Below are positions 7,369-28,605 of a stretch of 64,000 nucleotides of DNA, one piece after another (within the stretch, counting starts at the first letter, position 1; each line of letters begins with the position of its first letter). The stretch is from contig JBBDUV010000047.1 of NCBI GenBank assembly GCA_040903745.1, positions 3,779-67,778 of the forward strand, given 5' to 3'. This DNA comes from Bacteroidales bacterium (lineage in GTDB: Bacteria; Bacteroidota; Bacteroidia; Bacteroidales; GCA-2748055). The translations under genes were made by a program, and so were the position numbers. The notes below the pieces were generated by a model. The model was not told where the DNA came from. It made no database searches and saw only the letters and a program-made list of their open reading frames with translations.

Positions 7369-7647
7369 CTAGAGCGCTTGTCGCAGTTCTTGATCAATTC
7401 TGTCTGTTAAAAAGATCTTTATCAACGATTGATAAGGCACATCTTTCTTATGCGCGAGCACTTTCAGTTCATCAATAATATATTCGGGTAGACGCAGTGA
7501 GATGGTTTTCGTTGTAGGTTTCAGATTACTGAAAGCTACTTTTTCCGAGACATCCCAGTCAATATATTCAGAGGAATCATTTTTGCTCCAGAAAGTGCGC
7601 TCTTCCTCCTCATTTTTAAAAACAGGTATTTTATTTGCTTTTTTCAT
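7369..7647 (-). CDS. BrnA/CopG-like antitoxin
   Basis: IPVFKNEEEERTFW, NLKPTTKTISLRLP...DVPYQSLIK ribbon-helix-helix; overlaps the upstream toxin gene. Confidence 0.85.
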   Translation of the reverse strand: MKKANKIPVFKNEEEERTFWSKNDSSEYIDWDVSEKVAFSNLKPTTKTISLRLPEYIIDELKVLAHKKDVPYQSLIKIFLTDRIDQELRQAL

Positions 7648-7933
7648 AATATATCCTCCTCTCTTTTTTACTCATATCTCTGGCAGAAATGATACGAATC
7701 AGTCTGTCTCTGATAGTAAAGACGATGAATAACTGGCGCTGGTTGTCAGTCTTGCCTAAGAGAAACCATCTTTTCTCAGATTGTGAATGAAATAGATCAT
7801 CACCAACTATGACGGGAGCATTAAAGTATACCTGCTCACATTCATTTCTGCTCACGTGATGAAGTATCCAGTTCTTTTCTGAGTTTCCTTCATCCCAATC
7901 AAAACCAATACAATTTGTAAAAATATCACTCAT
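7631..7933 (-). CDS. BrnT-family ribonuclease toxin
   Basis: GFDWDEGNSEKNWILHHVS...VFTIR..LIRIISARDMSKKERRIY; start placed at MSDIF. Confidence 0.88.
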   Translation of the reverse strand: MSDIFTNCIGFDWDEGNSEKNWILHHVSRNECEQVYFNAPVIVGDDLFHSQSEKRWFLLGKTDNQRQLFIVFTIRDRLIRIISARDMSKKERRIYYEKSK

Positions 7934-7937
7934 AATC

Positions 7938-7956
7938 GTATATTGTAAAGATATAC
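7938..7956 (-). promoter_or_regulatory. Putative BrnA autoregulatory operator
   Basis: GTATAT-N7-ATATAC inverted repeat directly upstream of the toxin start codon. Confidence 0.45.
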
Positions 7957-8145
7957 AAACATTATAAGAATAGCAAAATGACAAGGATGAAAAAAGACTC
8001 TGTTTGGTTGATTGACTTCTTCGAATTTTTGTTTATACCTTATAACGAGCAGGTTCCGGCGTTGAATGCGGCTGTCATGAAAGATAAAGAATAGAATTCC
8101 TACATGAGTTTAAATAGCATGGTTGATTTACATCCGAAAATTTGA

Positions 8146-8168
8146 TATATTTGTACCATATAGGTACA
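8146..8168 (+). promoter_or_regulatory. Bacteroidota -7 promoter element overlapped by a YefM-type operator
   Basis: TATATTTG (8146-8153) overlapping the perfect inverted repeat TGTACC-ATATA-GGTACA (8152-8168). Confidence 0.65.
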
Positions 8169-8181
8169 TATTTTATCGAAT

Positions 8182-8433
8182 ATGAAGATAGTTAATAGCA
8201 GAGAATTCAGGGACCATCAAAAGAAGTATTTTGATCTGGTTGACCAGAATGAACAGATCATTGTTCAGAGGGGCAAGGATAAGGCCTATGTGATTATCTC
8301 TCTGAACGATGCTGACCGATTGTCTGTCAACGATACCTTGATTCAAACTGTTCGGGAAGCTGAGGCAGAATACTCAATGCGCAAAACTATCAGTATTAAT
8401 GATTCTGGTAATATATGGGAAAGTATATTATAG
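8182..8433 (+). CDS. Phd/YefM-family antitoxin
   Basis: MKIVNSREFRDHQKKYFDLVD..EQIIVQRG; overlaps the downstream toxin gene. Confidence 0.85.
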   Translation: MKIVNSREFRDHQKKYFDLVDQNEQIIVQRGKDKAYVIISLNDADRLSVNDTLIQTVREAEAEYSMRKTISINDSGNIWESIL

Positions 8434-8696
8434 AGGTCGCCTCGAAAGCCAGAAAGGAATTACAGCTGCATCATAAATCAGGTAAAAAATCTGATATCAG
8501 GAGAATCGAACAGATTTTCCGGGAATTGTCAGATACACCCTATGAGGGAACAGGAAATCCTGAACCGCTTAAATATAAATTGTCCGGGTATTGGTCAAGA
8601 CGAATAAACAAAAAAGACCGCATCGTCTACAAAGTAATTGAAGATAAAATACTTATACTGGTAGTGTCAGCCATCGGGCACTACGGAGACAAATAA
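8415..8696 (+). CDS. Txe/YoeB-family toxin
   Basis: TPYEGTGNPEPLKYKLSGYWSRRINKKDRIVY...GHY. Confidence 0.92.
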   Translation: MGKYIIEVASKARKELQLHHKSGKKSDIRRIEQIFRELSDTPYEGTGNPEPLKYKLSGYWSRRINKKDRIVYKVIEDKILILVVSAIGHYGDK

Positions 8697-9317: not shown

Positions 9318-9406
<89 letters not shown>

Positions 9407-9530: not shown

Positions 9531-10727
9531 CTAAAACGCAGAGACAAACCCAACGCTTGCCCTGCCGTAATCCTCATTGCCGAAGATGCGGGTATATTCT
9601 GTCACCAGCCTGACGTTGCGTCGTAGCAGGTACCCGGCATGCAGGGTGGCCGACTTATAATCCAGCTCATCGATATCCGATTCCACCCAGTTCCCGAGGG
9701 CGGTGAGGTACCAGTTGCTCCGGTCGCCCATGGGGGCATAAATGATCTCTGCGAATCCCCCGTGTGTAAGTACATCGTTCACCTGGGGATCGGTGAAAAG
9801 CAGCGTCTGCGAATCGGTTCTTCGGAGATACTGTATATTCATAATGAACTTTTCTCCTAGGTTCAGGGCCAGGTCGGGACCGTACATCGTGACAGTATTT
9901 TCCGGCGGACCGATTGCATCCGCCAGTTCCTCCTTTCCCTGGTAGCCAAAGAATCCGATGCTCAGGAAATCGCCAATACCCTGGTTGAGCTTCAACAGAT
10001 AGCTTTTGTGCTTGTCGCGGTCGAAAATGTGACCTTCACCAGCTTGTGGCAGTCCGTTTCCGTTCACAACCTCCGCAATAATATCGGTACCGGTGGGTAG
10101 CCCATATTCAAGCAAAATCCCCCGGTCATATTTCAGTCCGATGGATGAATTTCCCGGGGCCACGGTATAAATTACATAATCCTCGAGTGTGAGACGCAGT
10201 TCCCGTTTGAACAGCGGATCGGATACCTGGAACTGCCCGAGGTATAGGTTGACCCCTGTTCCCAATAGATCTGAGAACATCAAAAAGGCGTCTTCCACTC
10301 CTGCCACTTTTCCTCGCTCATTCATGTAGAAGTAGAAGTAGTAAGAGAGTTTTTCTGAAAGTTCGCCGCCCGACATCAGTTTGAGCGCGTATGGCATACC
10401 AAAATCCGGTGCTCCCCTGTTTTCATTGTTGTAGGTGATGTGTCCGTCGAGACGCACCGCCAGCGGAAAATCACGAATCAACGACAGCTTGTCATCCCCG
10501 GCTGGAGCAAAGTACCTGGGCGCTTCGTACTCTGTCATCCGGAACCCTGCACCGGCAAAATCATCACCGAAAGCTTTTAGTCTTGGACTGGCAGGGGAGT
10601 GGCAGACCTGACAGCTGATCTGGTATTTTCGTGCGAACGCCGGAATGGCATTCAGCTCTTCCACCAGGGGTCCTGCTATGATGGCAAGGATAAGTAGAAG
10701 ACGGAGGGTAACTGTTTTGTTTTTCAT
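9531..10727 (-). CDS. Cyc2-like fused monoheme cytochrome c / outer-membrane beta-barrel porin
   Basis: Signal peptide, then IPAFARKYQISCQVCHSPASPRLKAFGDDFAGAGF (PxFAR..CxxCH..PxL..GxxF..GF signature), amphipathic beta strands, terminal Phe; start placed at MKNKTV. Confidence 0.8.
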   Translation of the reverse strand: MKNKTVTLRLLLILAIIAGPLVEELNAIPAFARKYQISCQVCHSPASPRLKAFGDDFAGAGFRMTEYEAPRYFAPAGDDKLSLIRDFPLAVRLDGHITYNNENRGAPDFGMPYALKLMSGGELSEKLSYYFYFYMNERGKVAGVEDAFLMFSDLLGTGVNLYLGQFQVSDPLFKRELRLTLEDYVIYTVAPGNSSIGLKYDRGILLEYGLPTGTDIIAEVVNGNGLPQAGEGHIFDRDKHKSYLLKLNQGIGDFLSIGFFGYQGKEELADAIGPPENTVTMYGPDLALNLGEKFIMNIQYLRRTDSQTLLFTDPQVNDVLTHGGFAEIIYAPMGDRSNWYLTALGNWVESDIDELDYKSATLHAGYLLRRNVRLVTEYTRIFGNEDYGRASVGFVSAF

Positions 10728-10790
10728 ATCTGTATATTCTTTATTTAAACAATTGATAAATAATATTTTAGAGTAATATTTGGACTGCCG

Positions 10791-10845
10791 GTGAGTTATT
10801 CGTCCGCCTTCGGCGGACTCATGAGCTCCACTTCTTTCCGATTGT
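10791..10845 (-). repeat. 55-bp dispersed structured element, copy 1
   Basis: Reverse complement ACAATCGGAAAGAAGTGGAGCTCATGAGTCCGCCGAAGGCGGACGAATAACTCAC matches 14670-14724 at 47/55 positions. Confidence 0.8.
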
Positions 10846-10928
10846 CGACTCACTAAATACTATTTTTAATGGTATTCGGAGAGCGTTCTTCTTTCAGGGT
10901 CATTTATAATTACTCAGGCCGCTTTATC

Positions 10929-12299
10929 TTACGGTAATATATTCAGACCGGTAAAATGCTCATTGACCACCATGATTTCTGACTCCTCTTCAGGGACATT
11001 CAGGAAATCGGCCACAGGTTTTACCAGCAGCTGGTAATTGAGCACCGCCTTTACTTTCATTTCACCGGGGGCAGTCTCAAAGGGAAGGTTAAACGTGTAG
11101 GTTTCGATTTTGGTCTCCCGTGGACCGATCCGGTAATCCGTTCCTAATGACGCAGTGTTCCACTGCATGATGGTCATCCTGCCTTCCGGGTCAAAATAGG
11201 GCATGCGGAAAATCCGGTTCCCATGTGGGATACCATCACGTTGCACTCCTTCGAAATCTTCAATATCGAGGGGAACGCCCATATCCTGGTATGCCAGGTA
11301 ATCGCCCGCGATGGTGTATTCCTCCCCTTCAAATCCTTTTTTGTCAACCGGAATTATATAGGTGTCCCCTTTCGCGTCGGTGGCCTCCACCTGTAGCCAC
11401 AGGATGCGGTCCTCTACTGATCCGGTAGGAAATTTATGGCCTGTTTTCTGGTTAAACAGTGCGACAGTGAACACTACGGTTTCGCCGGGTTCAGCATCGC
11501 GGAGGTCTGGCTGGATCCTGAGTTCCACGGTTCCTCTTACCTTTCCCGGGTCGTGGGCCCCGTGAAAGAGGTGCAGACGGGCATCGGGATAGGTTTTTCC
11601 CATCATGGCGGTTTGAAATGGAGCAGCGGGCATGTGGCAATCCTGACACCGGACCCCTTCCTCCGCATATGGTCCCTCTTTCCATTCCAATTGGGTGCTT
11701 TTGACCCATACTCCGTATGGACTCTTTTCGTTGTGACAGGTGCCACAGAGTTCGGTGGTTTTGAAAAATTCATTTTTTGCTATGCGGTGGGCCGGGGAGC
11801 CGTTCCCCTCTCCGCGCGCGCTCTGTTTGGTAATACTTGGTCCCGTGATATGGCTGAAGTTATAGGGAGGATCAGTGGAAGATCCCTGTATCAGATGACA
11901 AACTTCGCATGATACCGATTCGTTGGCCATGGTGTTTTCCTCCGGTCGTGCCGGTGGCAGTTCACCAGCCATGAAAGCCAGGGGGGTATGGCACCCGTTA
12001 CAGCCATCCACTGCATCCTTCAGTTCGGGCACCTTTTCTGCATGGGCCACGGCCAGGTCGAAGTACTCGATCTCGTCCCAATGGTGGGTGTAGGCCTGCG
12101 ACATCATGGATTGTGACCACTGCTCATAGAGGGCAGGATGGCAGGTTCGGCATTTTTTTGCCGATTCAAAGTCCTTGTAGGAATATTTTCCTTTTAGATC
12201 CTCCATAATCCCTTCCAGAATCGCGGTGGAAGCCATGAGGAAGATAGCGGTGGCCGGTATCAGTATCCAGATGGTACGGCGTTTGGATTCTTTAAGCAT
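10929..12299 (-). CDS. Pentaheme c-type cytochrome (c554/c552-like N-terminal domain plus beta-rich C-terminal domain)
   Basis: N-terminal signal/anchor; five CxxCH motifs (CRTCH, CNGCH, CEVCH, CGTCH, CQDCH); YEQWSQSMM and TGHKFPTGS motifs. Confidence 0.88.
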   Translation of the reverse strand: MLKESKRRTIWILIPATAIFLMASTAILEGIMEDLKGKYSYKDFESAKKCRTCHPALYEQWSQSMMSQAYTHHWDEIEYFDLAVAHAEKVPELKDAVDGCNGCHTPLAFMAGELPPARPEENTMANESVSCEVCHLIQGSSTDPPYNFSHITGPSITKQSARGEGNGSPAHRIAKNEFFKTTELCGTCHNEKSPYGVWVKSTQLEWKEGPYAEEGVRCQDCHMPAAPFQTAMMGKTYPDARLHLFHGAHDPGKVRGTVELRIQPDLRDAEPGETVVFTVALFNQKTGHKFPTGSVEDRILWLQVEATDAKGDTYIIPVDKKGFEGEEYTIAGDYLAYQDMGVPLDIEDFEGVQRDGIPHGNRIFRMPYFDPEGRMTIMQWNTASLGTDYRIGPRETKIETYTFNLPFETAPGEMKVKAVLNYQLLVKPVADFLNVPEEESEIMVVNEHFTGLNILP

Positions 12300-12544
12300 A
12301 TCCTTATAAATAATTTACATAATGCAATTTCTAAGTTAGGAAACAATTGTTTTCATGCCTTTGCCGGGGGACATTTTTTTCGAAATATAGACTGATTCTA
12401 AAGAGTATACGCGCAAATTCTAATAGATGTTTAGATAATTTGCCCCCATACCTACACTTCGCTTTTAACACTCTCATACATTTTTTGATCACCCGGATAA
12501 AAATATTTGGAGGATATAGTTCAAACTCTTATTTTTACACAGTG

Positions 12545-12564
12545 GTTTGACATTATAGTCAAAC
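12545..12564 (+). promoter_or_regulatory. Putative TetR operator
   Basis: GTTTGAC-ATTATA-GTCAAAC perfect inverted repeat 26 bp upstream of the TetR start. Confidence 0.6.
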
Positions 12565-12590
12565 ATATTCGTAAAGTAATTGTGTTAACT

Positions 12591-13232
12591 ATGGAGCTGA
12601 GCAAATTAACGGAGACAAAAATTGTTAAAGCCGCAGAGCTGCTATTCTACCAGAAAGGAAAAGCCGGAACTTCCATGCAGGATATTGCCGATGAAGCAGG
12701 AATCACCCGTACGCTTCTGAACTACTATTTTCGGAGCAAAGATAAACTGTTCGAAGCGGTTTTCAGAACGGCGATGGAACGTTTTGTTCCAGCGCTGGCC
12801 GAAATGCTCCATTCTAACATGCCCTTTAGTGAATATCTTCCGGGGATGATTGAAACGATGATTGACACATTGATCGAAAATCCACATATCCCGGTATTCG
12901 TTCTCCAGGAATTATCATCCAACCCCGGAAGGATGGCGCAGATCATTAAGGAGATGGGTATCAACAGCGAAGTTGCCATGGAGAAGCTGATCAGCAATGC
13001 TGATTTTGTAAATCTTCCTTTCGATCCCAGGCATGCCATAATGAATGTCATCAGTCTTTGCATTTTCCCCTTTGCCTCACGTCCGGTGGTACAGGAAGTA
13101 ATTTTTGGGGGAGATGAAGAGGCGTACCTGCAGGGCATGAAGGATCGAAAGAAAATCCTGCCAGAAATGATTTTGAAATTTATGAACCCCTCATCATTGA
13201 GTTCAGATTATATCAGCGGTGATAAGACATAA
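12591..13232 (+). CDS. TetR/AcrR family regulator
   Basis: KIVKAAELLFYQKGKAGTSMQDIADEAGITRTLLNYYFRSKDKLF helix-turn-helix; start placed at MELSK. Confidence 0.93.
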   Translation: MELSKLTETKIVKAAELLFYQKGKAGTSMQDIADEAGITRTLLNYYFRSKDKLFEAVFRTAMERFVPALAEMLHSNMPFSEYLPGMIETMIDTLIENPHIPVFVLQELSSNPGRMAQIIKEMGINSEVAMEKLISNADFVNLPFDPRHAIMNVISLCIFPFASRPVVQEVIFGGDEEAYLQGMKDRKKILPEMILKFMNPSSLSSDYISGDKT

Positions 13233-13317
13233 GGACATATATAAATGGTTCGTTAGCAAAATGTTCGGTGATGAGGGTTGCTCATAAAGTATTAATGTAC
13301 ATGAACGCAATGAAATC

Positions 13318-14649
13318 ATGAAAAGAATAGGACAAATATCTCAAATGAGGGGTACAATGTTGTTGTCGCTGCTGGTTATTATGGTTGCAAGGATCAACGC
13401 ACAGGATGTTGCAACGGACCAGCAACCGGAAAATTCAGATCCGACGTTTACCCTCGGACAATGCCTCAATGCAGCTACGCAACATACTCCGGGAATTCGC
13501 AGCATGGAAATTCTGAAGCAGCAACAAATTCTTTTGGAGGAGAATATCAGGATCAGCTGGCTGCCTGCGTTTGACCTCAATGGCAAAGCCAGCTATCAGT
13601 CAGACGTGGTGACCATCGAAATCGATAATGCATCTATCCCAATCACATTTCCTGAAATGCCACACGACCAGTACTCCCTGAATATTGATGTTAGACAGAC
13701 CATCTATGACGGGGGACAGTCAAAACATGCGCGCCTCTATGAACAGCGAAAAACCGAGGCGGCCATACAGCAGATCGAGGTGGAGACCTATCGTATTAAG
13801 GAGCAGGTTGCAGGGCTCTACCTGTCGGTCCTTGCCGCGGAGGAAAACAGGAACAACATGGAACTGATGTTATCAAACCTGAAAGAGCAGGAGAAAGCAC
13901 TGCTATCTGCATTGGCGAACGGTGTTGCATCTGAAAAGGACCTCAGGGTAATCAGGGTTGAGATATTGAAGGTACTCCAGAGCCTGTCAGACACAGATGC
14001 GGCAAGGAACAGTGCGATGAAGATGTTGGCGGTATATACCGGAATCAATTTTAAGGAGGATGCAAGGTTGAAACCCCCTTATTTTGAAATAGAGGAGGAG
14101 TCGGAAAGGCAACGGCCTGAACTAAAAATGTATACACTGCAGAAAGAGACGATCAAATCCGGAAAGGATCTTGCATCAGCAAAGCGAATGCCTAAGATTT
14201 TTGCATATGGACAGGCCGGATACGGCCGTCCAGGGTATAACTTGCTCAACACCGGGTTTGATACCTATTATTTGGTGGGAGCGGGTCTGAAATGGAACAT
14301 TTGGGACTGGAACAGTACAGACAGGGAAAAGCAAATTCTCGATCTGAACAGCCAAATGATCGGCACATCCAGGGAAGCTTTCAACATGCAAATGGATGCG
14401 GCCACGGTGAAAGAAATTGAAACGATGAAGCAGCTTAAAAGCAATCTCGAACTGGACATGAAAATCCTTGAAATGCAAATGGAGATTACCAATGATGCAG
14501 CATCTCAACTGGAGAATGGTATAATAACTGCTACCGAATACATGCTTGAACTCAACAAGGAATCAGCAGCACGAATCCGCGAATCGATGCACAGGATTCT
14601 GCTGCTCCAATCGATGGCGAAATACAAATTCTACCAGGGAACGCTTTGA
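13318..14649 (+). CDS. TolC-family outer membrane efflux protein
   Basis: Signal peptide, LPAFDLNGKASYQS, QTIYDGG, LKWNIWDW; operon context. Confidence 0.88.
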   Translation: MKRIGQISQMRGTMLLSLLVIMVARINAQDVATDQQPENSDPTFTLGQCLNAATQHTPGIRSMEILKQQQILLEENIRISWLPAFDLNGKASYQSDVVTIEIDNASIPITFPEMPHDQYSLNIDVRQTIYDGGQSKHARLYEQRKTEAAIQQIEVETYRIKEQVAGLYLSVLAAEENRNNMELMLSNLKEQEKALLSALANGVASEKDLRVIRVEILKVLQSLSDTDAARNSAMKMLAVYTGINFKEDARLKPPYFEIEEESERQRPELKMYTLQKETIKSGKDLASAKRMPKIFAYGQAGYGRPGYNLLNTGFDTYYLVGAGLKWNIWDWNSTDREKQILDLNSQMIGTSREAFNMQMDAATVKEIETMKQLKSNLELDMKILEMQMEITNDAASQLENGIITATEYMLELNKESAARIRESMHRILLLQSMAKYKFYQGTL

Positions 14650-14669
14650 AATTATTATGAAATAATGAA

Positions 14670-14724
14670 ACAACCGGAACGAAGTGGAGTTCATGAGGCA
14701 GACGAATGAGGACGAATAACTCAC
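14670..14724 (+). repeat. 55-bp dispersed structured element, copy 2
   Basis: ACAACCGGAACGAAGTGGAGTTCATGAGGCAGACGAATGAGGACGAATAACTCAC, 47/55 identical to the reverse complement of 10791-10845. Confidence 0.8.
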
Positions 14725-14786
14725 TTGTAGTTAAAACGACAATTATAGTATTATACATCAAGTATTTAAATAAATAATTTACAGTT

Positions 14787-15665
14787 ATGAACCGAACAAC
14801 CATCTCTTGTATCATCGGTATTTTACTGTCTGGTTGCGGCAACAACGAGCAGGCAGCTGATGCTTACGGAAATTTTGAGGCTGTAGATGTGCTTGTATCC
14901 GCCGAAGGCCAGGGCAAGCTTCTCTCTTTCGATATTGAAGAAGGCGAAAGGCTCTCCGTTGGAAAAACAGTTGCTGTGATTGATACCATCCAACTGCACC
15001 TTCAAAAGGAACAGATCAGGGCCTCACTGAACGTTGTACGAAGCAACTATGTGACCGTCGAGGCCCAATCGGCTTCATACAGGGTGCAGCTCGATAACCT
15101 GGACCGTGAATTGAAGCGGATAGAGAACCTGCTTACAGATGGTGCTGCGACAGGCAAGCAGCGCGACGATATCCTTGGCAATATGGCCCTGGTCAAATCC
15201 CAGCGTTCAGCATTGCAGGCGCAGAAGGCCACCATATCGGCGGAAGAGCATACCCTGCTTGTGCAGGTAAGACAGATCGAAAACCAGATACAAAAGTCAA
15301 TGACTATCAATCCGATCGACGGATTGGTGCTCGAAAAATACAGACAGTCCGGGGAGATCGTTGCCCCGGGACAGGCTCTCTATAAAATTGCCGATACTGA
15401 TCAGCTTATCCTCAGGGCCTATATCAGCGGGGACCAGCTCAGCGGTGTAAAAGTGGGTGACCAGGTGATTGTGAGGTATGACGGGCCCAGCGGGATAGCA
15501 GAAACCAAAGGTACCGTTTCATGGATCGCATCCCAGGCCGAGTTCACCCCGAAAATTATTCAGACCAGGGAAGAGCGGGTCAACCTGGTTTACGCGATGA
15601 AGGTGATTGTCGTAAACGACGGCAGCCTCAAGATAGGCATGCCCGGTGAGGTGAAATTCAGATAG
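14787..15665 (+). CDS. HlyD/YbhG-like membrane fusion lipoprotein
   Basis: Lipobox LSGC, ADAYGNFEA, AEFTPKIIQTREERVNLVYA, LKIGMPGEV. Confidence 0.9.
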   Translation: MNRTTISCIIGILLSGCGNNEQAADAYGNFEAVDVLVSAEGQGKLLSFDIEEGERLSVGKTVAVIDTIQLHLQKEQIRASLNVVRSNYVTVEAQSASYRVQLDNLDRELKRIENLLTDGAATGKQRDDILGNMALVKSQRSALQAQKATISAEEHTLLVQVRQIENQIQKSMTINPIDGLVLEKYRQSGEIVAPGQALYKIADTDQLILRAYISGDQLSGVKVGDQVIVRYDGPSGIAETKGTVSWIASQAEFTPKIIQTREERVNLVYAMKVIVVNDGSLKIGMPGEVKFR

Positions 15666-15666
15666 C

Positions 15667-16581
15667 ATGTCATTCACTGTGGACAATATCAGCAAATCGT
15701 TCGGTGATGTCCGTGCGCTCGATCAAGTCTCATTTAAGACAGGCGATGGGGAGCTGTTCGGACTGATTGGTCCGGATGGCGCAGGAAAGACCACCCTCTT
15801 TCGCATCCTCGTAACCCTTTTATTGCCGGATTCCGGACAGGGTCTTGTCAAAGGAATGGATGTAGCTGGATCGCCCCGGCAAATCCGCAGGATCATGGGG
15901 TATATGCCCGGACGCTTTTCGCTTTACCCTGACCTTTCAGTAAAGGAAAATCTGGAGTTTTACGCTACGGTTTTTGGAACGACCGTTTCAGAACAGTACG
16001 AATTTGTGAAACCCATCTACTCCCATATTGAACCTTTTGAAGACAGGCTGGCTGGTAGACTGTCGGGCGGAATGAAACAGAAGCTCGCCCTCTCCTGTGC
16101 ACTGATCCACCGTCCGGAGGTCCTGGTGCTCGACGAACCCACTACAGGAGTTGACGCACTGTCCCGCAGCGAGTTCTGGGAGATGCTCAGGGGGATCAAA
16201 GCGCAGGGAATCACCATACTAGTTTCCACACCCTATATGGATGAAGCAACACTGTGCGACAGGGTGGCGCTGATACAGAAAGGCAGGATACTCTCCGTAA
16301 CAGAACCTGCAGACCTGCAGCTTCCAGATGGAATGAAAGCATTCTCCTTCCGCGCTTCAGGAAAAATACACGCTTATCTGCATCGCTTGCGCGAACTGGA
16401 CAGCTGTCATTCGGCCTACCTGTTCGGCAACGAAATACATCTGGTGGTAACGGGGGATAGCGATGCCCAAGGGCTGCAGAGGATACTGAGCACATGGAAC
16501 ATTCCGGGCATGATCCTGAAAGAGATCAAGCCAGGGGTAGAGGATATTTTTATGGAACTCATGAAATCCAAAGAAGCATGA
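15667..16581 (+). CDS. ABC transporter ATP-binding protein (YbhF N-half-like)
   Basis: GPDGAGKTT, LSGGMKQKL, LDEPTTGVD, STPYMDEA. Confidence 0.92.
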   Translation: MSFTVDNISKSFGDVRALDQVSFKTGDGELFGLIGPDGAGKTTLFRILVTLLLPDSGQGLVKGMDVAGSPRQIRRIMGYMPGRFSLYPDLSVKENLEFYATVFGTTVSEQYEFVKPIYSHIEPFEDRLAGRLSGGMKQKLALSCALIHRPEVLVLDEPTTGVDALSRSEFWEMLRGIKAQGITILVSTPYMDEATLCDRVALIQKGRILSVTEPADLQLPDGMKAFSFRASGKIHAYLHRLRELDSCHSAYLFGNEIHLVVTGDSDAQGLQRILSTWNIPGMILKEIKPGVEDIFMELMKSKEA

Positions 16582-17336
16582 TGAAGGATAATCATATCAT
16601 TGAGGTACATGACCTGGTGAAGAAATTCGGTGCCTTTGTGGCCAATGACCACCTGACCTTTCATGTGGAGGAGGGGGAAATATTTGGATTCCTGGGGGCA
16701 AATGGCGCCGGAAAAACAACCGCGATGCGTATCCTCTGCGGACTCTCCTTTCCAACATCGGGGGAGATCAATGTTGCCGGATACGATGTATACAGTGAGC
16801 GTGAAAAAATCAAAAAGAACATCGGGTATATGTCACAAAAATTCTCCCTCTACGATGACCTCACCGTGTCGGAGAATATACGACTCTATGCAGGGATCTA
16901 CGGTGTGAAAAAGCGACAGGTGGCCGAGAGGGAGGCGCAGTTGCTTGGCAGACTCGGGATTACCGATATCCACAACAGGTTGATCAGTGAAATCCCTACC
17001 GGATGGAAACAAAAACTGGCCTTTTCGGTGGCCATTTTCCACTATCCGAAGATTGTCTTCCTGGACGAACCCACCGGTGGGGTAGATCCTGTAACCAGGC
17101 GGCAGTTTTGGGAAATGATTCATGAAGCGACCAACGAAGGCATTACCGTCTTTGTTACCACGCACTATATGGACGAAGCAGAGTACTGCGACAGGGTGTC
17201 GGTCATGGTTGATGGCCGAATTGATGCGCTGGATACCCCTGAAAATCTCCGGCAGCAATACCAGGCGAAAAATATGAACGAGGTCTTTCTGAAACTTGCC
17301 AGAGGAGCCGTTAACGGGAAGGAGGCTGGAGCATGA
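16578..17336 (+). CDS. ABC transporter ATP-binding protein (YbhF C-half-like)
   Basis: GANGAGKTT, LDEPTGGVD, TTHYMDEAE; ATGA overlap with the previous gene. Confidence 0.92.
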   Translation: MMKDNHIIEVHDLVKKFGAFVANDHLTFHVEEGEIFGFLGANGAGKTTAMRILCGLSFPTSGEINVAGYDVYSEREKIKKNIGYMSQKFSLYDDLTVSENIRLYAGIYGVKKRQVAEREAQLLGRLGITDIHNRLISEIPTGWKQKLAFSVAIFHYPKIVFLDEPTGGVDPVTRRQFWEMIHEATNEGITVFVTTHYMDEAEYCDRVSVMVDGRIDALDTPENLRQQYQAKNMNEVFLKLARGAVNGKEAGA

Positions 17337-18439
17337 AACGCTTTCTGGGATTCGTAAAGAAGGAGTTCAGGCATATCTTTCGGGATGTGCGCACGCTTGT
17401 GATCCTTTTTGGATTGCCAGTGATGATGATTATCCTTTTTGGATACGTAGTAAGCAATGACCTGAAAGATATCCGGATCGCCATCCTGGATCTGTCAGGC
17501 GACCGGATGACCCACGACATCACCAACAAGGTTCTTGCTTCGGGATATTTTGTCCAGGCAGGAAATCTTACCAGCGAAAAGGAGATAGAAAGAGCGTTTC
17601 AGTCGGGCCGTGCCAAGGTCGTGCTTATTTTCGGACCAGATTTTGAATCCCGTGTTGTGAATGATAAGAGGGCCGCACTCCGCCTGGTTGTAGATGCTGC
17701 AGATGCCAATTCGGCGCAGCTTGCAGTGAATTATGCCCAGGGTATCATCGCTTCCTATTTCACTGATCTTCAGAATAATGTTTCCGTTCCCTGGCGCGTG
17801 GAAACAAGATCCAGGATGATGTACAATGAGTCGATGAAGGGAGTGTATATGTTTGTGCCCGGACTCATGGCGCTGATCCTGATGCTGATTTCTGCACTGA
17901 TGACCTCCATCACGATTACACGTGAAAAGGAGTTCGGCACTATGGAACCACTGCTGGCGTCACCACTGAGGCCCCGGGAAATTATTCTCGGAAAGGTCAC
18001 TCCCTATGTCCTACTCTCTTTCGTGAACGCTCTTACCATTCTGATCCTGGGTGTGCTGGTATTCAAGGTTCCGGTGACAGGGAGCATACCCCTGCTGCTC
18101 GCCGAGAGTCTGCTCTATATCACCCTGGCACTCTCCCTGGGTGTGTTTATCTCCTCTGTGGCAAAAACCCAGCAGATCGCCATGGTGTTTTCGATGGTGG
18201 GTCTGATGCTTCCCACCATCCTGTTATCGGGATTCATCTTCCCGATCGAGAATATGCCTGCAGTTCTGCAGTGGTTCTCCAGCATCATGCCCGCCCGGTG
18301 GTTTATAGTGATCATCAAGAATATTATGCTGAAGGGTACCGGTCTTTTGTTCGTCTGGAAAGAGACATTGATCCTTCTTCTAATGACAGTTTTCTTTATT
18401 TTGGCCGCCGTAAGGAGGTTTAAAACACGGTTGGAATAG
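17333..18439 (+). CDS. ABC-2 type permease (YbhS-like)
   Basis: KEFRHIFRD, VPGL, REKEFGTME, LLSGFIFPIENMP. Confidence 0.9.
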   Translation: MKRFLGFVKKEFRHIFRDVRTLVILFGLPVMMIILFGYVVSNDLKDIRIAILDLSGDRMTHDITNKVLASGYFVQAGNLTSEKEIERAFQSGRAKVVLIFGPDFESRVVNDKRAALRLVVDAADANSAQLAVNYAQGIIASYFTDLQNNVSVPWRVETRSRMMYNESMKGVYMFVPGLMALILMLISALMTSITITREKEFGTMEPLLASPLRPREIILGKVTPYVLLSFVNALTILILGVLVFKVPVTGSIPLLLAESLLYITLALSLGVFISSVAKTQQIAMVFSMVGLMLPTILLSGFIFPIENMPAVLQWFSSIMPARWFIVIIKNIMLKGTGLLFVWKETLILLLMTVFFILAAVRRFKTRLE

Positions 18440-18441
18440 TT

Positions 18442-19563
18442 ATGAATACACTCTTCACATTATTGCGTAAGGAGTTCAGACAGATTTTCAGGAACAAGTT
18501 CATGCTGCCTGTGATCTTTGTCATTCCCATTGTTCAAATGGTAATCCTGGTGTACGCAGCCAGCCTCGATATGAAAAACATTGATATGGTGGTGGTGGAC
18601 CACGACCGATCCATGGCCTCGCGCAGACTCATATCCAAGTTCGCGGGTTCGCCGTTCTTTACCCTGAAAGGAACCACCTTTGAATACAAGGAGGCAGAAC
18701 GGATGATCATCCGTGACCAGGCCGATGTCGTACTGCGGATTGAGAAAGGATTTGAAGCTGATTTGTATTCAGAGAGTCAGACCGAATGCCAGTTGATTAT
18801 CAATGCGATCAATGCAACCGAGGCCGGGTTGATCAATGCCTATTCCGGACGGATCATCAGTGATTTCAACCTGGCGATCCGCACCGAATGGTTTGGAATA
18901 AACCGCGACGGAATGATGTTGAAAATCGATATTTCCACTGCATACTGGTTCAATCCGCTGATGGATTACAAGATCTATATGTTTTCCGGGATCCTGGTGA
19001 TCGTGGTGACCATGATCGGGATGCTGCTAACTGCCTTGAATCTTGTAAGGGAAAAAGAGCTTGGTACCGCTGAACAGATGAATGTCACCCCGATGAAAAA
19101 ATACCAGTTCATCGTGGCAAAGCTACTTCCCTTCTGGATCATTGCCATGTTTGAATTGTCATTCGGACTGGTTCTAGGACACCTGTTGTTTAACCTGCCA
19201 GTGGAAGGAAGCCTGCTGTTGTTGTTCGGATTTGCTTCGGTATATGTCATTGTGGTCCTGTCAATCGGACTGTTCTTTTCCACATTTTCATCCACCCAGC
19301 AACAGCTGATGTTCGTTGCATTTTTCTTTATGATCACCTTTATCCTGATGAGCGGGGTGTTTACACCCCAGGAGAGCATGCCAGTGTGGGCGCAGAAGCT
19401 CAACGTGATCAATCCGGTGGCCTATTTCATGCGTGTGATCCGCATGGTGTTGCTGAAGGGGTCGGGAATCGCCGATATCGGCCGCGATCTTGCGGGCATC
19501 AGTATTTATGCTGTGTTGATTCTGACACTCGCCATCACCAATTACCGGAAAACGGCCACCTGA
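18442..19563 (+). CDS. ABC-2 type permease (YbhR-like)
   Basis: KEFRQIFR, REKELGTAEQ, LMSGVFTPQESMP. Confidence 0.9.
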   Translation: MNTLFTLLRKEFRQIFRNKFMLPVIFVIPIVQMVILVYAASLDMKNIDMVVVDHDRSMASRRLISKFAGSPFFTLKGTTFEYKEAERMIIRDQADVVLRIEKGFEADLYSESQTECQLIINAINATEAGLINAYSGRIISDFNLAIRTEWFGINRDGMMLKIDISTAYWFNPLMDYKIYMFSGILVIVVTMIGMLLTALNLVREKELGTAEQMNVTPMKKYQFIVAKLLPFWIIAMFELSFGLVLGHLLFNLPVEGSLLLLFGFASVYVIVVLSIGLFFSTFSSTQQQLMFVAFFFMITFILMSGVFTPQESMPVWAQKLNVINPVAYFMRVIRMVLLKGSGIADIGRDLAGISIYAVLILTLAITNYRKTAT

Positions 19564-19720: not shown

Positions 19721-20398
19721 TCAGTCCGGTTTATTCTTATTGTTCCAAACCACAATCTGGTAGGGCCAGAAAAGGTATTTGAATGGATATACAAGAAAGT
19801 GCATAAAACGGGTAAAAGGTATCATACCTATCAGAATAAAAGCAGATACGATGTGAAGCTGCACCATAAAAGGCATCGCAACAACTCCTGCAGGATCAGG
19901 GTTCAATTTGAAAACCGACCAGAGATAGGGTGTTAAAACTGTAGCGAACCAGGAAGAACCCCATCTGAAAAAGAATGCAATCCACAGACCAGAGATCACC
20001 TGAACCATGAGGAGAACATATACAAATATATCCATGTTGGTGGTTACCACATGGAGTCTCTTGTTCCTGATACGCCTCCTGATGAGCAAAAGCAGTCCGG
20101 CCAGCAAAAGTAACCCAAAGGCAAAAGCGGTGATCTCCAGAATAAACAGCCGCAGGGGAACCCGGTTCCAGGCCAGCACTGACCGCGGTGTAAGAAATGC
20201 TGTGAGATGACCAAAAAACAGAAAGATCAACCCCCAGTGAAAAGGTCTGTTGCCAAAATAGAGTTCCCTGGTCTCAAGAAACTGGCTTGAAAGAGATGAA
20301 ACCTGAAAACCCGAGAACAGGTATCTGCGAATACTGCCCAGCAACAAGGAGAGAATCGCCAGGTAGGGTAATACTGCAAATAAAAATGAACCGCTCAT
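19721..20398 (-). CDS. narI: Respiratory nitrate reductase gamma subunit (diheme b)
   Basis: LPY, SSLSSQFLE, FHWG..FFGH, LHIVS..IPFTRFMH heme-b histidines. Confidence 0.95.
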   Translation of the reverse strand: MSGSFLFAVLPYLAILSLLLGSIRRYLFSGFQVSSLSSQFLETRELYFGNRPFHWGLIFLFFGHLTAFLTPRSVLAWNRVPLRLFILEITAFAFGLLLLAGLLLLIRRRIRNKRLHVVTTNMDIFVYVLLMVQVISGLWIAFFFRWGSSWFATVLTPYLWSVFKLNPDPAGVVAMPFMVQLHIVSAFILIGMIPFTRFMHFLVYPFKYLFWPYQIVVWNNKNKPD

Positions 20399-20423
20399 AG
20401 CATCTTTTTTTTAGTTCCTCATG

Positions 20424-21023
20424 TTATCTGATATCTCTCCATTGTGGCAAACAGGTAAACTGCTCCGCCTTTTGCTGTGTACTGAAATCGAACTCCTCAA
20501 ACTGTGAATCCGGAAATTCCAACTCCATAATTTTTAGTAAGACGCGAAGCATACCTTTATATACATTACCATCAGAATGAAATGACTCAATCATTTTTCT
20601 TATGGCAGGGATCATCAGGGAGACAATCATCTCTTCTGCCAGGCTTGTCTCGCTCAGCATAGGGAGCAATGTTAGTATATTGGGCAGATGATCGGGCAGT
20701 TCATTGCCACAGTCGTTGCCGGCATTTTCCTGCTCCTGCTTTATATGTGACAAAAAGACTCCGCGGTTGTAATCCTCCCCATACAATACATAACCTATAT
20801 CGAGATAACAAAGCGCCTGAACATCAAACGTGCTGATATAATACTCCTGCTGTTCCTCAATAGTTTTTCTGGTAGTATGGGAAATATACTCCTCCACGGC
20901 CGGATCAGGATCGGATATAATCTCCCCGGTAATCCTTCTTAATTCTCCGGGGTAATCCGGCTTTAAGGGTGCTGGATATCTGAACACCTCAGCCAAAATA
21001 GTATAATGCGTTAAATCCCTCAT
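20424..21023 (-). CDS. narJ: Nitrate reductase molybdenum cofactor assembly chaperone
   Basis: EYYISTFD, LYGEDYNRG, ELPDHL; located between narH and narI. Confidence 0.88.
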   Translation of the reverse strand: MRDLTHYTILAEVFRYPAPLKPDYPGELRRITGEIISDPDPAVEEYISHTTRKTIEEQQEYYISTFDVQALCYLDIGYVLYGEDYNRGVFLSHIKQEQENAGNDCGNELPDHLPNILTLLPMLSETSLAEEMIVSLMIPAIRKMIESFHSDGNVYKGMLRVLLKIMELEFPDSQFEEFDFSTQQKAEQFTCLPQWRDIR

Positions 21024-21024
21024 C

Positions 21025-22518
21025 TTACAATCCCCTTTTGGGTTTCTTTAAAAAACCAAATCCTGTGTTTCCCCGGTGGACATGCGTATCTTCCATCATT
21101 TCGATTGCCTCCTCCCTATGAGCCGGAGGTATCACAAACCTGTCCTCCAGTTTGGCTAGTGAGGTCAAGCTGTAAATATTATCAGCGATTTCGGTGGTCA
21201 AATCCGACTCCTGCAGCCGTCTTTTCACTTCAGAAACATCCATATCTCCAACCGTTACGGACCGGCGATGAAGGCGTACGCCCATCATTTTTTTGAGAAT
21301 CCTACTGATGGTGGTTACATCGCCCACACTAAATAAACTGGCAAGGTATTCCAGTGGAAGGCGGGATTGATCCATATCATCCCAGATCGACAATCCGGTT
21401 GAATCATATTTGTCCTGCTCTGTCATCTGCGCCATGGCTGGCAAAAGCGGCATTACATAGAACAGATTGGGTAATGTACGAAACTCCGGATGCAGCGGTA
21501 AAGCAAGACCCCACTCCTTTACATATTTCCAGACAGGCGATTTTTGTGCAGCCTGAATCGTGGAATCGGCAATCCCTGCCTTTCTGGCAGCAGCAATAAT
21601 CTCCGGATCATTGGGATCCAGGTAAATATCAAGCTGTTTTTCAATCAGTTCCTTCTCATCGCAGGAGGCTATCTGCTCAATCTTATCGGCATCATACAAC
21701 ATCACACCCAGGTAACGGATCCGACCCACACAGGAATGCATGCAATTAGGGGCCTGACCGGTCTCGACCCGGGGGTAACAAAGAATACACTTCTCCGATT
21801 TACCGGTCTGCCAGTTGTAATATACCTTTTTATACGGACAGGCAGAGACACACATTCTCCAGCCACGACATCGCTCCTGGTTGACCAATACGATACCGTC
21901 CTCCCCTCTCTTGTATAAAGCTCCGGAAGGACAAGCACCCACACAGGCTGGATTCAGGCAGTGGTTACAGATCCTGGGAAGATAAAACATCACCATCCTT
22001 TCTAATTGGAACATGGCATCTCTTACAGCCGGGGAAAGATCCTTCATGTTCACATCCTTCCGGGCGTACTCAGGCGATCCCCCGAGATCATCATCCCAGT
22101 TGGGACCCGACCGGGGAGTCATCTTTTCTCCCGTGACCATGGATACAGGTTCGGCGGTAGGCTGGTCCTCCCCTTCAGGTGAATCCATCAGTTTCTCATA
22201 CTGATAGTTCCACGGTTCGTAGTAATCGTCCATCGTAGGCATATGGGTGTTGTGAAACAATTTTGCAAGTCCCCTGATTTTTCCCGCACCCTTTAATTCG
22301 ACAGATTTATTGTTCTTTACCCATCCGCCCTTGTAGATCTCCTGATCCTCCCAATTATCAGGATATCCGGTGCCCGGCTTCGTCTCCACATTGTTCCACC
22401 ACATGTATTCGGCACCCTTCCTGTCTGTCCAGGTATTCTTACAGGCAATGGAACAGGTATGACACCCGATACACTTGTCGAGGTGAAATACCATTGAAAT
22501 TTGCGATCGTATATTCAT
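21025..22518 (-). CDS. narH: Respiratory nitrate reductase beta subunit
   Basis: LDKCIGCHTCSIACK, WNNVETKPG, LPRICNHCLNPACV, CRGWRMC, KSEKCILCYPR. Confidence 0.97.
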   Translation of the reverse strand: MNIRSQISMVFHLDKCIGCHTCSIACKNTWTDRKGAEYMWWNNVETKPGTGYPDNWEDQEIYKGGWVKNNKSVELKGAGKIRGLAKLFHNTHMPTMDDYYEPWNYQYEKLMDSPEGEDQPTAEPVSMVTGEKMTPRSGPNWDDDLGGSPEYARKDVNMKDLSPAVRDAMFQLERMVMFYLPRICNHCLNPACVGACPSGALYKRGEDGIVLVNQERCRGWRMCVSACPYKKVYYNWQTGKSEKCILCYPRVETGQAPNCMHSCVGRIRYLGVMLYDADKIEQIASCDEKELIEKQLDIYLDPNDPEIIAAARKAGIADSTIQAAQKSPVWKYVKEWGLALPLHPEFRTLPNLFYVMPLLPAMAQMTEQDKYDSTGLSIWDDMDQSRLPLEYLASLFSVGDVTTISRILKKMMGVRLHRRSVTVGDMDVSEVKRRLQESDLTTEIADNIYSLTSLAKLEDRFVIPPAHREEAIEMMEDTHVHRGNTGFGFLKKPKRGL

Positions 22519-22534
22519 AACAAACTGCGGGTTT

Positions 22535-25500: not shown

Positions 25501-26146
25501 CCCATATTTCCGGAAAGGAATTTGGCAGGTCACAATACCAGTCGTAAAAGCTCAGGTTAACACCACCAAAAAGCTGCAGAAACCTTGATCCGGCTGCAAA
25601 ACTCATCATCGACATCGCTGGTATGGGGGAAAATCCCACCACCCGGTCCGGGCCATACTTTTTTGCAGTATAAATATTGGCCGCCCCGATTATTTCCAGC
25701 GCCTCTTCCCATCCGATCCGGCGAAACCCACCCTTGCCCCGGGCCTTTTGATAACGCATTCTCTTCTCCGGGTTTTCCTGCAAACCCTTCCAGGCCAGAA
25801 AAGCATCCCCTGTCTTCTCCTTTTCTGCTCTGAACAGGTCGATAAGCGCTCCCCTTATCATCGGGTATTTTACCCTGACCGGGCTGTACAAATACCACGA
25901 AAAGGAGATCCCGCGCTGACAACCACGGGGTTCATAATGTGGCAGGGACTTTTCAAGCAGAGGGTAATCAAGTGCCTGTGATTCCCAAACCACGATGCCG
26001 TTTTTTACATGAATGTTCCAGCTACAGCCACCCGTACAGTTTACCCCATGTGTGCTTCGCACCGTCTTGTCATGCTGCCAGCGATTGCGGTAGAATTCTT
26101 CCCATTTACGGAATTTGGGAGAAACCATGTCTTTGATCCAACTCAT
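22535..26146 (-). CDS. narG: Respiratory nitrate reductase alpha subunit (cytoplasm-facing, no Tat signal)
   Basis: [56 protein letters not shown]. Confidence 0.97.
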
Positions 26147-26155
26147 AAGCTTATC

Positions 26156-27016
26156 TTATTTATCGACGATTCTCTTCTTAAACGGAATCTTCCTGTTATC
26201 GTAGAGAATATATATATGTACAACAATTACAATCGCGAGCACAAAGCCCAACATCAGAAAAACAGGACCATCGCTCAAATTCTTTGGTGCCCCGGTATGC
26301 CTGTCATTCAAAAAATGAAGGAACGCGGTGACTGCTTCTTTTTCATCAGCAGTGATCTCAATATCGCTGTAAGCAGCCTTCATCGTGGGAAAGGGCGGAT
26401 TCGAAATGATCGCCTGGATACCGGCCCGACCCAAGCGCTCCCATGAATCAGTCAGGTCAATACCAAGCCTTCCCCCGGAAATCGTCGATCCGTCCTGCAA
26501 ACCGTGGCAAGCGCTACAGGGTGATGGACCATTTTTAAATTGGGTATGTCCATAGAACAGAGACTTCCCATCGCGTAAAAGATCTGAGGGATAACTCGCT
26601 GCTGAACGCGAAACGGAACTGTCGGGGGTAATTGCCTGACCGGTAATTGCCTGACCGGTTTTTTTGTCAATTCCGGAATCAATCTCCCTGATGTAATCAA
26701 TGATACTTAAAATTTCACGATCAGAGAAATTATTATCAGGCATCGGAATCCTGTTGTAAGCTTCATAAAGTGATACTGCAAGAGAATCACCCTCCTTGAT
26801 CATTTTCTGCGAGGACCGAATGAAACGGAGCAGCCACTCCTGTTCGCGGATTTCATGAATACCGGCAAGATCCGGTCCGACCAACCTGCCGCCGTTAATG
26901 GTATGGCAGGCTGCACATGTTGCCTTATACAGACTTTCACCATCGCTCTGTGCATATGCAGAATAACTATGGATAAACAGGATAAACACGACAGCCAAAA
27001 AACAACACTTTTTCAT
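26156..27016 (-). CDS. Membrane-anchored diheme c-type cytochrome (NarC-like)
   Basis: Signal peptide, CAACH and CSACH, candidate Met ligands (IPMP, FPTM), C-terminal TM helix; stop codon 9 bp upstream of the narG start. Confidence 0.85.
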   Translation of the reverse strand: MKKCCFLAVVFILFIHSYSAYAQSDGESLYKATCAACHTINGGRLVGPDLAGIHEIREQEWLLRFIRSSQKMIKEGDSLAVSLYEAYNRIPMPDNNFSDREILSIIDYIREIDSGIDKKTGQAITGQAITPDSSVSRSAASYPSDLLRDGKSLFYGHTQFKNGPSPCSACHGLQDGSTISGGRLGIDLTDSWERLGRAGIQAIISNPPFPTMKAAYSDIEITADEKEAVTAFLHFLNDRHTGAPKNLSDGPVFLMLGFVLAIVIVVHIYILYDNRKIPFKKRIVDK

Positions 27017-27052
27017 AACGGGTTACATTTGACTCACATACATTAACAGGAT

Positions 27053-28556: not shown

Positions 28557-28605
28557 TAAATCAGCTGTTTTTATTGTTTAGAGAGCCAGTGTAAAGAATT
28601 TTTGT

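Follow-up and report, generated by a model that had tools for sequence, protein, structure and literature searches.

A Cyc2-family cytochrome-porin gene coupled to a pentahaem cytochrome gene in Bacteroidales

What does a Cyc2-like protein do in a Bacteroidales genome, and with which partner does it work? The question is raised by a stretch of 64,000 nucleotides (nt) from a Bacteroidales bacterium (contig JBBDUV010000047.1 of assembly GCA_040903745.1), which we call the window and to whose positions all coordinates refer unless another contig is named. Two genes on its minus strand encode a Cyc2-like protein of 398 amino acids (aa), here named P0001, and a pentahaem cytochrome, here named P0002. 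Cyc2 is the main metagenomic marker for 'iron oxidation', and the function of most of its homologues is untested. A first-pass annotation, made from the letters alone, had proposed that the two proteins form a compact electron conduit across the outer membrane.

Cyc2-like genes have already been reported in metagenome-assembled genomes (MAGs) of Bacteroidota/Bacteroidetes and Ignavibacteria (PMC9769843, PMC6344600, PMC8478452), and also in Aminicenantes and Krumholzibacteria, according to the available parts of this literature. A constant pentahaem partner is nowhere mentioned in the literature on Cyc2-like genes that we searched, supplements excluded. What is new here is that a Cyc2-family porin-cytochrome is genetically hard-wired to a pentahaem cytochrome of the c552/MccSep type, mostly in Bacteroidales and also in some other Bacteroidota and Ignavibacteriota.

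By sequence and by model, P0001 is a Cyc2-family fused cytochrome-porin, with every published hallmark that could be examined here. Its translation agrees exactly with the signal peptide, haem-motif sequence, beta-strand region and terminal Phe that had been quoted for the 398-aa open reading frame (ORF): it starts with MKNKTV, runs through a hydrophobic leader ending in ELNA and then IPAFARKYQISCQVCHSPASPRLKAFGDDFAGAGF, and finishes with GFVSAF. Read in order, the N-terminal part is the leader followed by AIPAFARKY-QIS-CQVCH-SPAS-PRL-KAFGDDFAGAGF, after which a long strand-rich region extends to the final SAF. In the available text of Keffer et al. 2021, a Cyc2 protein has AxPxFAR[Q/K][T/Y] before a single CxxCH, PxL after it, a minimum length of 365 aa and a porin of 16 strands that resembles OprO/OprP. 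P0001 has these elements in this order, CQVCH being its single CxxCH and PRL its PxL; it is 398 aa long, and the leader, judged by eye, ends with LNA just before the motif.

The barrel that had been suggested for the strand-rich region is also found in the model. An AlphaFold2 (AF2) prediction from a 44-sequence alignment has a mean predicted local distance difference test score (pLDDT) of 87.4 and a predicted template-modelling score (pTM) of 0.84, and DSSP assigns 16 strands to it, from residue 90 to residue 397. When this model is used as a Foldseek query, OprP (2o4v_A) is ranked first (E 3.7e-11) and OprO (4rjw) sixth.

P0001 has no match in Pfam, in NCBIfam or among PDB sequences, but homologues are numerous: 4288 of the 7999 candidates scored are found at E<=1e-3, and the family makes up 1024 clusters at 50% identity in a representative library. 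The nearest relatives come from Bacteroidales MAGs, and the named homologues are all annotated as 'hypothetical protein', just as had been foreseen for automated pipelines. Among 44 diverse full-length homologues P29 is invariant, while F31, R33, C39, C42, H43, P48, L50 and G54 are at least 90% conserved. Further, 78 of 79 Cyc2-like ORFs have a single CxxCH, 71 of 77 pentahaem ORFs have five, and in most P0001 homologues an AxA-type cleavage site stands immediately before IPAFARKY. Because the residues from P29 to G54 and the CxxCH counts are conserved among homologues, the haem-motif pattern exceeds what is expected by chance.

To relate P0001 to the Cyc2 of recognised iron oxidisers we used stand-in hidden Markov models (HMMs) from a reference set of at least 120 loci with PxFARQTGxxCxxCH. 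This motif follows Keffer et al. 2021 only in part, so that the set is biased and without Leptospirillum; it includes Acidithiobacillus, Zetaproteobacteria, Mariprofundaceae, Sideroxydans, Gallionella and Chlorobiota. Out of 119 motif-bearing ORFs the 90 that are complete and at least 300 aa long served as targets, and an HMM of the P0001 family matches all 90 of them (E 4.8e-28 to 2.9e-10). When the targets are cut through the CxxCH, 45 of the 90 are still matched at E<=1e-3 against none of 90 reversed controls, among them Acidithiobacillus (L085, 3.4e-8), Sideroxydans (L113, 4.5e-8) and Zetaproteobacteria (L149, 5.5e-7). With another 35 residues removed, so that only the barrel remains, six of the 90 are matched, which fits the poor conservation of Cyc2 barrels described in Keffer et al. 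2021. In the reverse direction, an HMM of the Zetaproteobacteria/Gallionellaceae clade (18 sequences) and one of the Acidithiobacillus/Burkholderiales clade (65 sequences) each find P0001 as their sole match among the 8793 ORFs of the genome, at E 1.6e-9 and 1.5e-8, respectively. On these sequence comparisons, P0001 is homologous to the Cyc2-like proteins of Acidithiobacillus, Zetaproteobacteria and Gallionellaceae beyond the haem motif.

We also built a FastTree phylogeny of 43 P0001-family representatives and 85 sequences of the motif-selected set, with its bias and its lack of Leptospirillum. The P0001 family forms a clade of its own here (local support 98), and both the Zetaproteobacteria/Gallionellaceae and the Acidithiobacillus/Burkholderiales clades are separate from it. 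P0001 carries the K/Y variant of the motif, which is included in the published motif definition, and one survey (PMC9769843), in the part available, places Bacteroidota sequences in Cyc2 cluster II.

P0002 had been noticed for its five CxxCH motifs and its position about 200 bp upstream on the same strand. The count is exactly five (CRTCH, CNGCH, CEVCH, CGTCH and CQDCH at residues 50, 100, 131, 185 and 218) and the gap is 201 nt. Its N-terminus is basic and continues into a hydrophobic stretch of some 20 residues; STA|I is a debatable cleavage site, and homologues vary here. Pfam finds Cytochrome_C554 above threshold (3e-10), and a profile of 29 P0002 homologues has a single PDB match, 5ze8_A (E 1.5e-8), with the five haem motifs aligned in order. 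In the AF2 model the haem domain is poor (pLDDT below 50), while the C-terminal beta-sandwich is mostly confident (means of 60-96 over 10-residue blocks). For this domain VIA-align returns 5ze8_A at Z 13.3 (root mean square deviation 2.8, 159 residues, 21% identity), followed by generic immunoglobulin (Ig)-like folds at Z<=9.2. Judged from sequence and fold, P0002 is related to the Thermochromatium tepidum pentahaem cytochrome c552 (5ZE8), and MccSep/ExtKL is a more distant relative.

The latter resemblance raises another reading, namely that P0002 acts as an enzyme in the periplasm, reducing for instance a sulfur, selenium or nitrogen species, while the barrel passes its substrate or product and the barrel haem is an accessory. 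ExtKL (NF040886) is the best NCBIfam match of P0002 (2.8e-14, residues 47-313), the nearest solved folds of the barrel are the anion-selective OprP and OprO, and the ext cluster of Geobacter sulfurreducens presumably also encodes a barrel protein, ExtI. According to the available part of a 2025 preprint, MccSep (ExtKL), encoded by the ext-cluster genes gsu2937-2936 (extKL) of that organism, is a periplasmic pentahaem selenoprotein that reduces polysulfide via U325 and a Cys haem ligand, and its substrate route across the outer membrane is unknown. However, P0002 scores 52.5 bits against an ExtKL cut-off of 250. Inspection of the ORF reveals no in-frame TGA and no Cys beyond the five CxxCH, so that both residues defining MccSep catalysis are missing and P0002 should lack the polysulfide chemistry of MccSep. 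The P0002 family has at least five invariant non-motif His residues (H72, H171, H243, H249 and H288), enough to provide every haem with a second ligand, and GHKFPTG is invariant as well. As the barrel's own haem motif is also strongly constrained, we consider the enzyme reading quite improbable.

Two narrower assignments of P0002 were also rejected. It is not MccSep/ExtKL proper, given its score and the missing selenocysteine and extra Cys. Nor is it a NapC/NirT protein (PF03264): it reaches 23.8 bits against 24.1 and covers profile positions 33-84 of 174 only, and a whole-genome search picks other genes.

Is the proximity of the two genes an accident of this locus? We surveyed one-genome-per-species contigs with an 11-sequence alignment and kept the best 80 of 397 relatives. 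The hosts are mostly Bacteroidales, and Prolixibacteraceae, Marinilabilia, Lentimicrobiaceae and Melioribacteraceae (L073, L077) are represented; one carrier, Tangfeifania diversioriginum DSM 27063 (L072, Prolixibacteraceae), is cultured, and some carrier Bacteroidales come from anaerobic digesters and sediment. In 79 of the 80 loci a P0002 homologue lies immediately upstream on the same strand, and the exception (L074) has only 92 nt of upstream sequence on its contig. At L027, L071 and L075 the contig end leaves the last 36-50 residues of the P0002 homologue visible, and in L013 the first 90 residues are missing. By best tblastn segment, identity is 58-83% for full-length P0002 matches and 54-78% for P0001 homologues; the truncated L013 reaches 96% and 94%, respectively.

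The same picture emerges from 301 genomes sampled evenly across the window's order. The P0001 and P0002 genes were each detected in 21 of them, and in 20 the two are neighbours on a single contig; altogether 22 genomes hold either gene, and the two without an adjacent pair have truncated matches. The cassette is patchy within the order, being present in about 13 of about 143 families, and neither gene was found in the two other genomes of the window's own family. Apart from the pair itself nothing is constant: neighbour clustering finds no other gene common to more than 15 of the 80 loci, and in three further genomes the neighbours are housekeeping genes.

The coupling is also confined to this group. 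A pentahaem gene stands beside the Cyc2-like gene in none of the 120 motif-selected loci listed. The same holds for 80 loci of Cyc2-like relatives from Gammaproteobacteria, Aquificota and WOR-3, which have no common cytochrome neighbour either, and for 80 Gemmatimonadota Cyc2-like loci, 69 of them with at least 1.5 kb of upstream sequence. The genes of P0001 and P0002 are a self-contained, operon-like two-gene cassette, specific to this Cyc2-like subclade, and the pairing noticed in the window is far stronger than a single locus could show.

A protein of 964 aa in a public collection (P0391) is only seemingly a fusion of the two. It consists of the C-terminal half of a pentahaem protein, a junk linker, a Cyc2-like protein whose signal peptide is still in place, and an out-of-frame low-complexity end; we take it to be a gene-calling read-through across the spacer.

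Conserved adjacency is by itself no proof of binding, and a complex prediction for P0001 (residues 27-398) and P0002 (residues 33-456) with four of the six haems, run without controls, gives ipSAE values of 0.00 and 0.01, which speak neither for nor against contact. The two genes could be co-inherited without any exchange of electrons, for instance if the barrel took up iron or anions, or sensed the redox state, and the pentahaem protein served another pathway. However, the coupling is near-absolute, with 79 of 80 loci and 20 of 22 genomes, the two exceptions among the latter being truncated matches; all other surroundings of the pair vary, and both products are haem proteins of the cell envelope. 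Independence of the two is therefore very unlikely in our view, even less credible than the enzyme reading. P0001 and P0002 probably move electrons jointly across the outer membrane, because the pentahaem gene constantly accompanies the gene of a haem-bearing pore in this group, and it is likely that they form a functional electron-transfer pair.

In which direction would the electrons go? For the window genome we favour an inward flow with Fe(II) uptake, a tentative assignment that we regard as plausible but short of probable. Encoded by one operon-like cassette, the two proteins would be a redox module at the outer membrane. P0001 would be exported and fold as a 16-strand barrel, and we infer that its N-terminal domain bears a single c-type haem, placed at or within the mouth on the periplasmic side as in the proposal made for Cyc2. 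P0002 would be a periplasmic five-haem wire with an Ig-like domain, possibly tethered to the inner membrane, and would act as a dedicated link from the barrel haem to the respiratory chain. Dissolved Fe(II) would enter the pore of P0001 and give an electron to the Cyc2-type haem, and P0002 would then carry it over the periplasm to cytochrome-c-dependent acceptors. In the window genome the aa3-type oxidase, together with alternative complex III, could serve as such, and so could NarGHI, which is encoded about 7 kb from the cassette and has a dihaem cytochrome c of its own. In an organotrophic host this would be an auxiliary iron oxidation, mixotrophic or protective, and not autotrophy.

Suitable terminal enzymes are present. 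For the aa3-type oxidase and alternative complex III of the window genome, CoxB, haem O synthase and ACIII-like subunits are found; CcsB, NrfHA and several other multihaem cytochromes are present as well. The nar cluster (19721-29130, minus strand) combines a nitrate reductase with a dihaem cytochrome c, a nitrate-type transporter and a hemerythrin; the cytochrome c within the operon is reminiscent of NarC of Thermus. Further, 15 of the 20 cassette genomes have COX1, compared with 113 of the 281 others (Fisher p 0.004, related genomes not being independent), as do 10 of the 13 cassette families. Finally, the Cyc2 proteins tested biochemically all oxidise Fe(II), as far as the available parts of Keffer 2021, PMC13692758 and PMC13741234 describe them.

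Several observations weigh against Fe(II) uptake. The hosts (Bacteroidales, Prolixibacteraceae and Melioribacteraceae) are heterotrophs and not known iron oxidisers, and in the tree, with its biased reference set, P0001 stands apart from the clades with classical iron oxidisers. The solved relative of P0002, the T. tepidum c552 (5ZE8), is a cytochrome that we take to be of low potential. Known Cyc2 partners are described as high-potential carriers, and MccSep, another relative of P0002, works reductively according to the 2025 preprint, both in the parts of these sources that were available. Further, COX1 was not found in five of the 20 cassette genomes (G047, G070, G179, G237 and G241). In these five there is no NarG over the cut-off and no NosZ, although the NosZ search matched no control genome either; NrfA is found in three, cytochrome bd in four and cytochrome c peroxidase in two. 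In G237 (2.6 Mb, 98% complete) neither COX1, NarG, NosZ, NrfA, cytochrome bd nor cytochrome c peroxidase was found, so that the cassette has no obvious high-potential sink there.

In the opposite direction, electrons would run from the menaquinol pool via a NapC/NirT-type or other quinol dehydrogenase (or an anchored P0002) to the pentahaem protein, the barrel haem and a soluble acceptor. The pore would restrict the acceptors to small molecules, for instance flavins, chelated Fe(III) or analogues of quinones or humics, and the conduit would be an outlet, possibly reversible, for anaerobic heterotrophs. It would be a single function fitting all hosts, including the five without COX1 and G237 without the tested terminal enzymes. 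Proteins of the NapC/NirT family were found in five of five genomes tested (G000 and G237 included), the carriers include Melioribacteraceae as well as digester and sediment Bacteroidales, and the reductive MccSep and the presumably low-potential 5ZE8 cytochrome are in line with this direction. One Cyc2 has a midpoint potential (Em) of -130 mV in the source available to us, so low-potential members of the family exist, and He et al. 2019 (PMC6344600), in the part available, list Cyc2-like genes from an anoxic humic hypolimnion, in Bacteroidetes as well as in taxa that reduce Fe(III).

However, the available parts of the three biochemical studies named above report no Cyc2-family reductase, and COX1 is enriched in the cassette genomes. 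Further, a single haem in a narrow barrel is out of reach of solids, so that only soluble acceptors would be possible. We regard outward flow as somewhat unlikely. A related and similarly doubtful proposal is that a barrel of the Cyc2 type and a pentahaem protein of the c552/MccSep type were recruited jointly as a minimal mobile two-gene module, outward or reversible, of anaerobic heterotrophs. For the window genome we rank Fe(II) uptake slightly first, with the outward direction close behind because haem-copper oxidases are missing from five of the 20 cassette genomes. In short, Fe(II) oxidation is the role that fits the biochemistry of the family, while outward or reversible transfer is the role that fits every host.

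The coordinates of the cassette and of the nar and toxin-antitoxin genes are collected in Table 1. For P0001 an alternative ORF with a GTG start extends to 10853; we use the 398-aa start because full-length homologues among the matches listed are about 380-430 aa long, mostly 395-401, and have an N-terminus like that of the 398-aa form.

Table 1. Features of the cassette and its surroundings in the window.
Feature	Position	Strand	Remarks
P0001 gene, fused monohaem cytochrome-porin of the Cyc2 family (by sequence and model)	9531-10727	minus	398 aa + stop; ATG at 10727, stop 9531-9533
P0001 predicted signal peptide, residues 1-27, MKNKTVTLRLLLILAIIAGPLVEELNA	10647-10727	minus	by eye
P0001 N-terminal cytochrome domain, residues 28-88	10464-10646	minus	AIPAFARKY, CQVCH (10599-10613), PRL; motif definition of Keffer et al., from the available text
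P0001 predicted 16-strand beta-barrel, residues 90-398	9534-10460	minus	Phe at C-terminus; DSSP on model, Foldseek
Intergenic spacer P0001/P0002, 201 nt	10728-10928	minus	
P0002 gene, pentahaem c-type cytochrome with C-terminal Ig-like domain	10929-12299	minus	456 aa + stop
P0002 N-terminal basic and hydrophobic segment, residues 1-32, signal peptide or signal anchor	12204-12299	minus	AF2 helix, residues 2-31
P0002 five-haem domain, residues 46-250	11550-12164	minus	CxxCH at 12138-12152, 11988-12002, 11895-11909, 11733-11747, 11634-11648; collinear with 5ze8_A
P0002 Ig-like beta-sandwich, residues 255-456	10932-11537	minus	invariant GHKFPTG; AF2 block means, VIA-align to 5ze8_A
CopG-type antitoxin	7369-7647	minus	
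BrnT-like toxin	7631-7984	minus	
Small ORF preceding YoeB/ParE-like toxin	8182-8433	plus	
YoeB/ParE-like toxin	8415-8696	plus	
NarI	19721-20398	minus	
199-aa ORF in NarJ position	20424-21023	minus	no Pfam/NCBIfam match
NarH	21025-22518	minus	
NarG	22535-26146	minus	TIGR01580 at 1460 bits
Dihaem class-I cytochrome c	26156-27016	minus	
Major facilitator superfamily (MFS) transporter	27285-28556	minus	
Hemerythrin	28606-29130	minus	

The RNA fold of the spacer is ordinary (z -1.13) and the spacer has no Rfam match, the Rfam search returning a tRNA alone. Upstream of 74 pentahaem genes an FNR/CRP box is found once (shuffled mean 2.8) and no 8-mer is common to more than 19 of the regions; a Fur-like box occurs in eight of the 74 against a shuffled mean of 2.85, a weak signal in AT-rich DNA. 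The segment 9450-12450 is represented in 14 DNA datasets, all labelled as sediment, mat or stromatolite metagenomes, and no RNA dataset is listed.

Just past the 3' end of the P0001 gene lies tRNA-Ser(GCT) (9318-9406), on the opposite strand, and two toxin-antitoxin pairs follow at 7369-8696. The G+C of the 10-12 kb bin is 50%, compared with 44-45% in the adjoining bins. Together with the patchy distribution, these features hint that the cassette was acquired by transfer. On the other side a TetR gene is divergent from the 5' side of the cassette. It belongs to a plus-strand group at 12507-19563, between the cassette and the nar genes, with a TolC-like outer-membrane factor, an HlyD-type adaptor, two ATP-binding cassette (ABC) ATPases and two ABC-2 permeases; the adjacency of this efflux system to the cassette is not conserved in other genomes.

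Some further haem proteins were seen in the genomes examined. On contig C6 of G000 (L202:5135-11093), genes for an Fnr/Crp-type regulator and a double-rhodanese protein occur together with two ORFs that match no known family, one of 452 aa with ten CxxCH and one of 819 aa. We take this arrangement to resemble the ext cluster of Geobacter, with its rhodanese ExtH and barrel ExtI, and it may be a second outer-membrane electron-transfer system. Contig C21 (L203:5907-12711) encodes a Rieske protein, a cytochrome b with ExtP as its best match (1.3e-67) and a 677-aa ORF with eight CxxCH; this is an unusual bc-type complex with a multihaem c subunit, and a divergent 778-aa ORF nearby combines eight CxxCH with tetratricopeptide (TPR) repeats. 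Contig C29 (L206:3977-5479) encodes a 500-aa fusion of a tetrahaem domain of the NapC/NirT type with a GldK/FGE-sulfatase-like domain. This fusion occurs in cassette genomes, and G237, in which none of the terminal enzymes searched for was found, has two such genes of about 515 aa.

The pairing matters in several ways. In the available part of one biochemical study the physiological Cyc2 partner in neutrophilic iron oxidisers is described as unavailable; here the genome itself identifies a partner and provides a defined pair for co-expression, structure determination and electrochemistry. The hosts are abundant heterotrophs of sediments, mats and digesters, with about 400 species carrying both genes, and the cultured T. 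diversioriginum allows the direction and the substrate to be tested. Cyc2 matches in Bacteroidota and Ignavibacteriota should be interpreted as iron oxidation only with caution. If the outward or reversible module were real, a Cyc2-family protein would serve as the terminal reductase for Fe(III) or humic acceptors in solution, and marker-gene calls of 'iron oxidation' for these phyla in sediments, mats and digesters would point the wrong way.

How does the cassette compare with known systems? The Cyc2 family proper, with A. ferrooxidans Cyc2, Leptospirillum Cyt572, Mariprofundus Cyc2PV-1 and Ghiorsea Cyc2TAG1_1, shares with P0001 the signal peptide, the motif, the single CxxCH, the PxL, a length of about 400 aa, the predicted 16-strand OprO/OprP-like barrel, the C-terminal Phe and a homology beyond the motif. 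P0001 differs by FARKY in place of FARQTG, by its separate clade and by its heterotrophic host. Its gene is tied to a pentahaem gene, which was not found in the 280 loci of other Cyc2-like clades; the known Cyc2 partners are rusticyanin/Cyc1 of the rus operon in the sources available.

Among pentahaem cytochromes, the T. tepidum c552 (5ZE8) is similar to P0002 in the order and spacing of its five CxxCH, in its C-terminal Ig-like domain and in length (435 against 456 aa), whereas overall identity is low; a pairing with a Cyc2-like gene was seen for P0002. MccSep/ExtKL of G. sulfurreducens is likewise a periplasmic pentahaem cytochrome of the same superfamily, and its ext cluster presumably includes an outer-membrane barrel too; P0002, however, is far below the family cut-off and has neither selenocysteine nor the extra Cys haem ligand, and its partner barrel, unlike that of MccSep, would bear a haem of its own.

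The MtrAB, MtoAB and PioAB systems and the Pcc systems of Geobacter also link a multihaem cytochrome to an outer-membrane barrel for electron transfer across the membrane. In these, according to the available text of Keffer et al. 2021, a haem-free barrel of at least 20 strands sheathes a decahaem wire. A sheath of this type was rejected for P0001 because the barrel is too small: with 16 predicted strands it is too narrow for the pentahaem protein, and the haem motif, and with it the putative terminal haem, is on the barrel protein itself.

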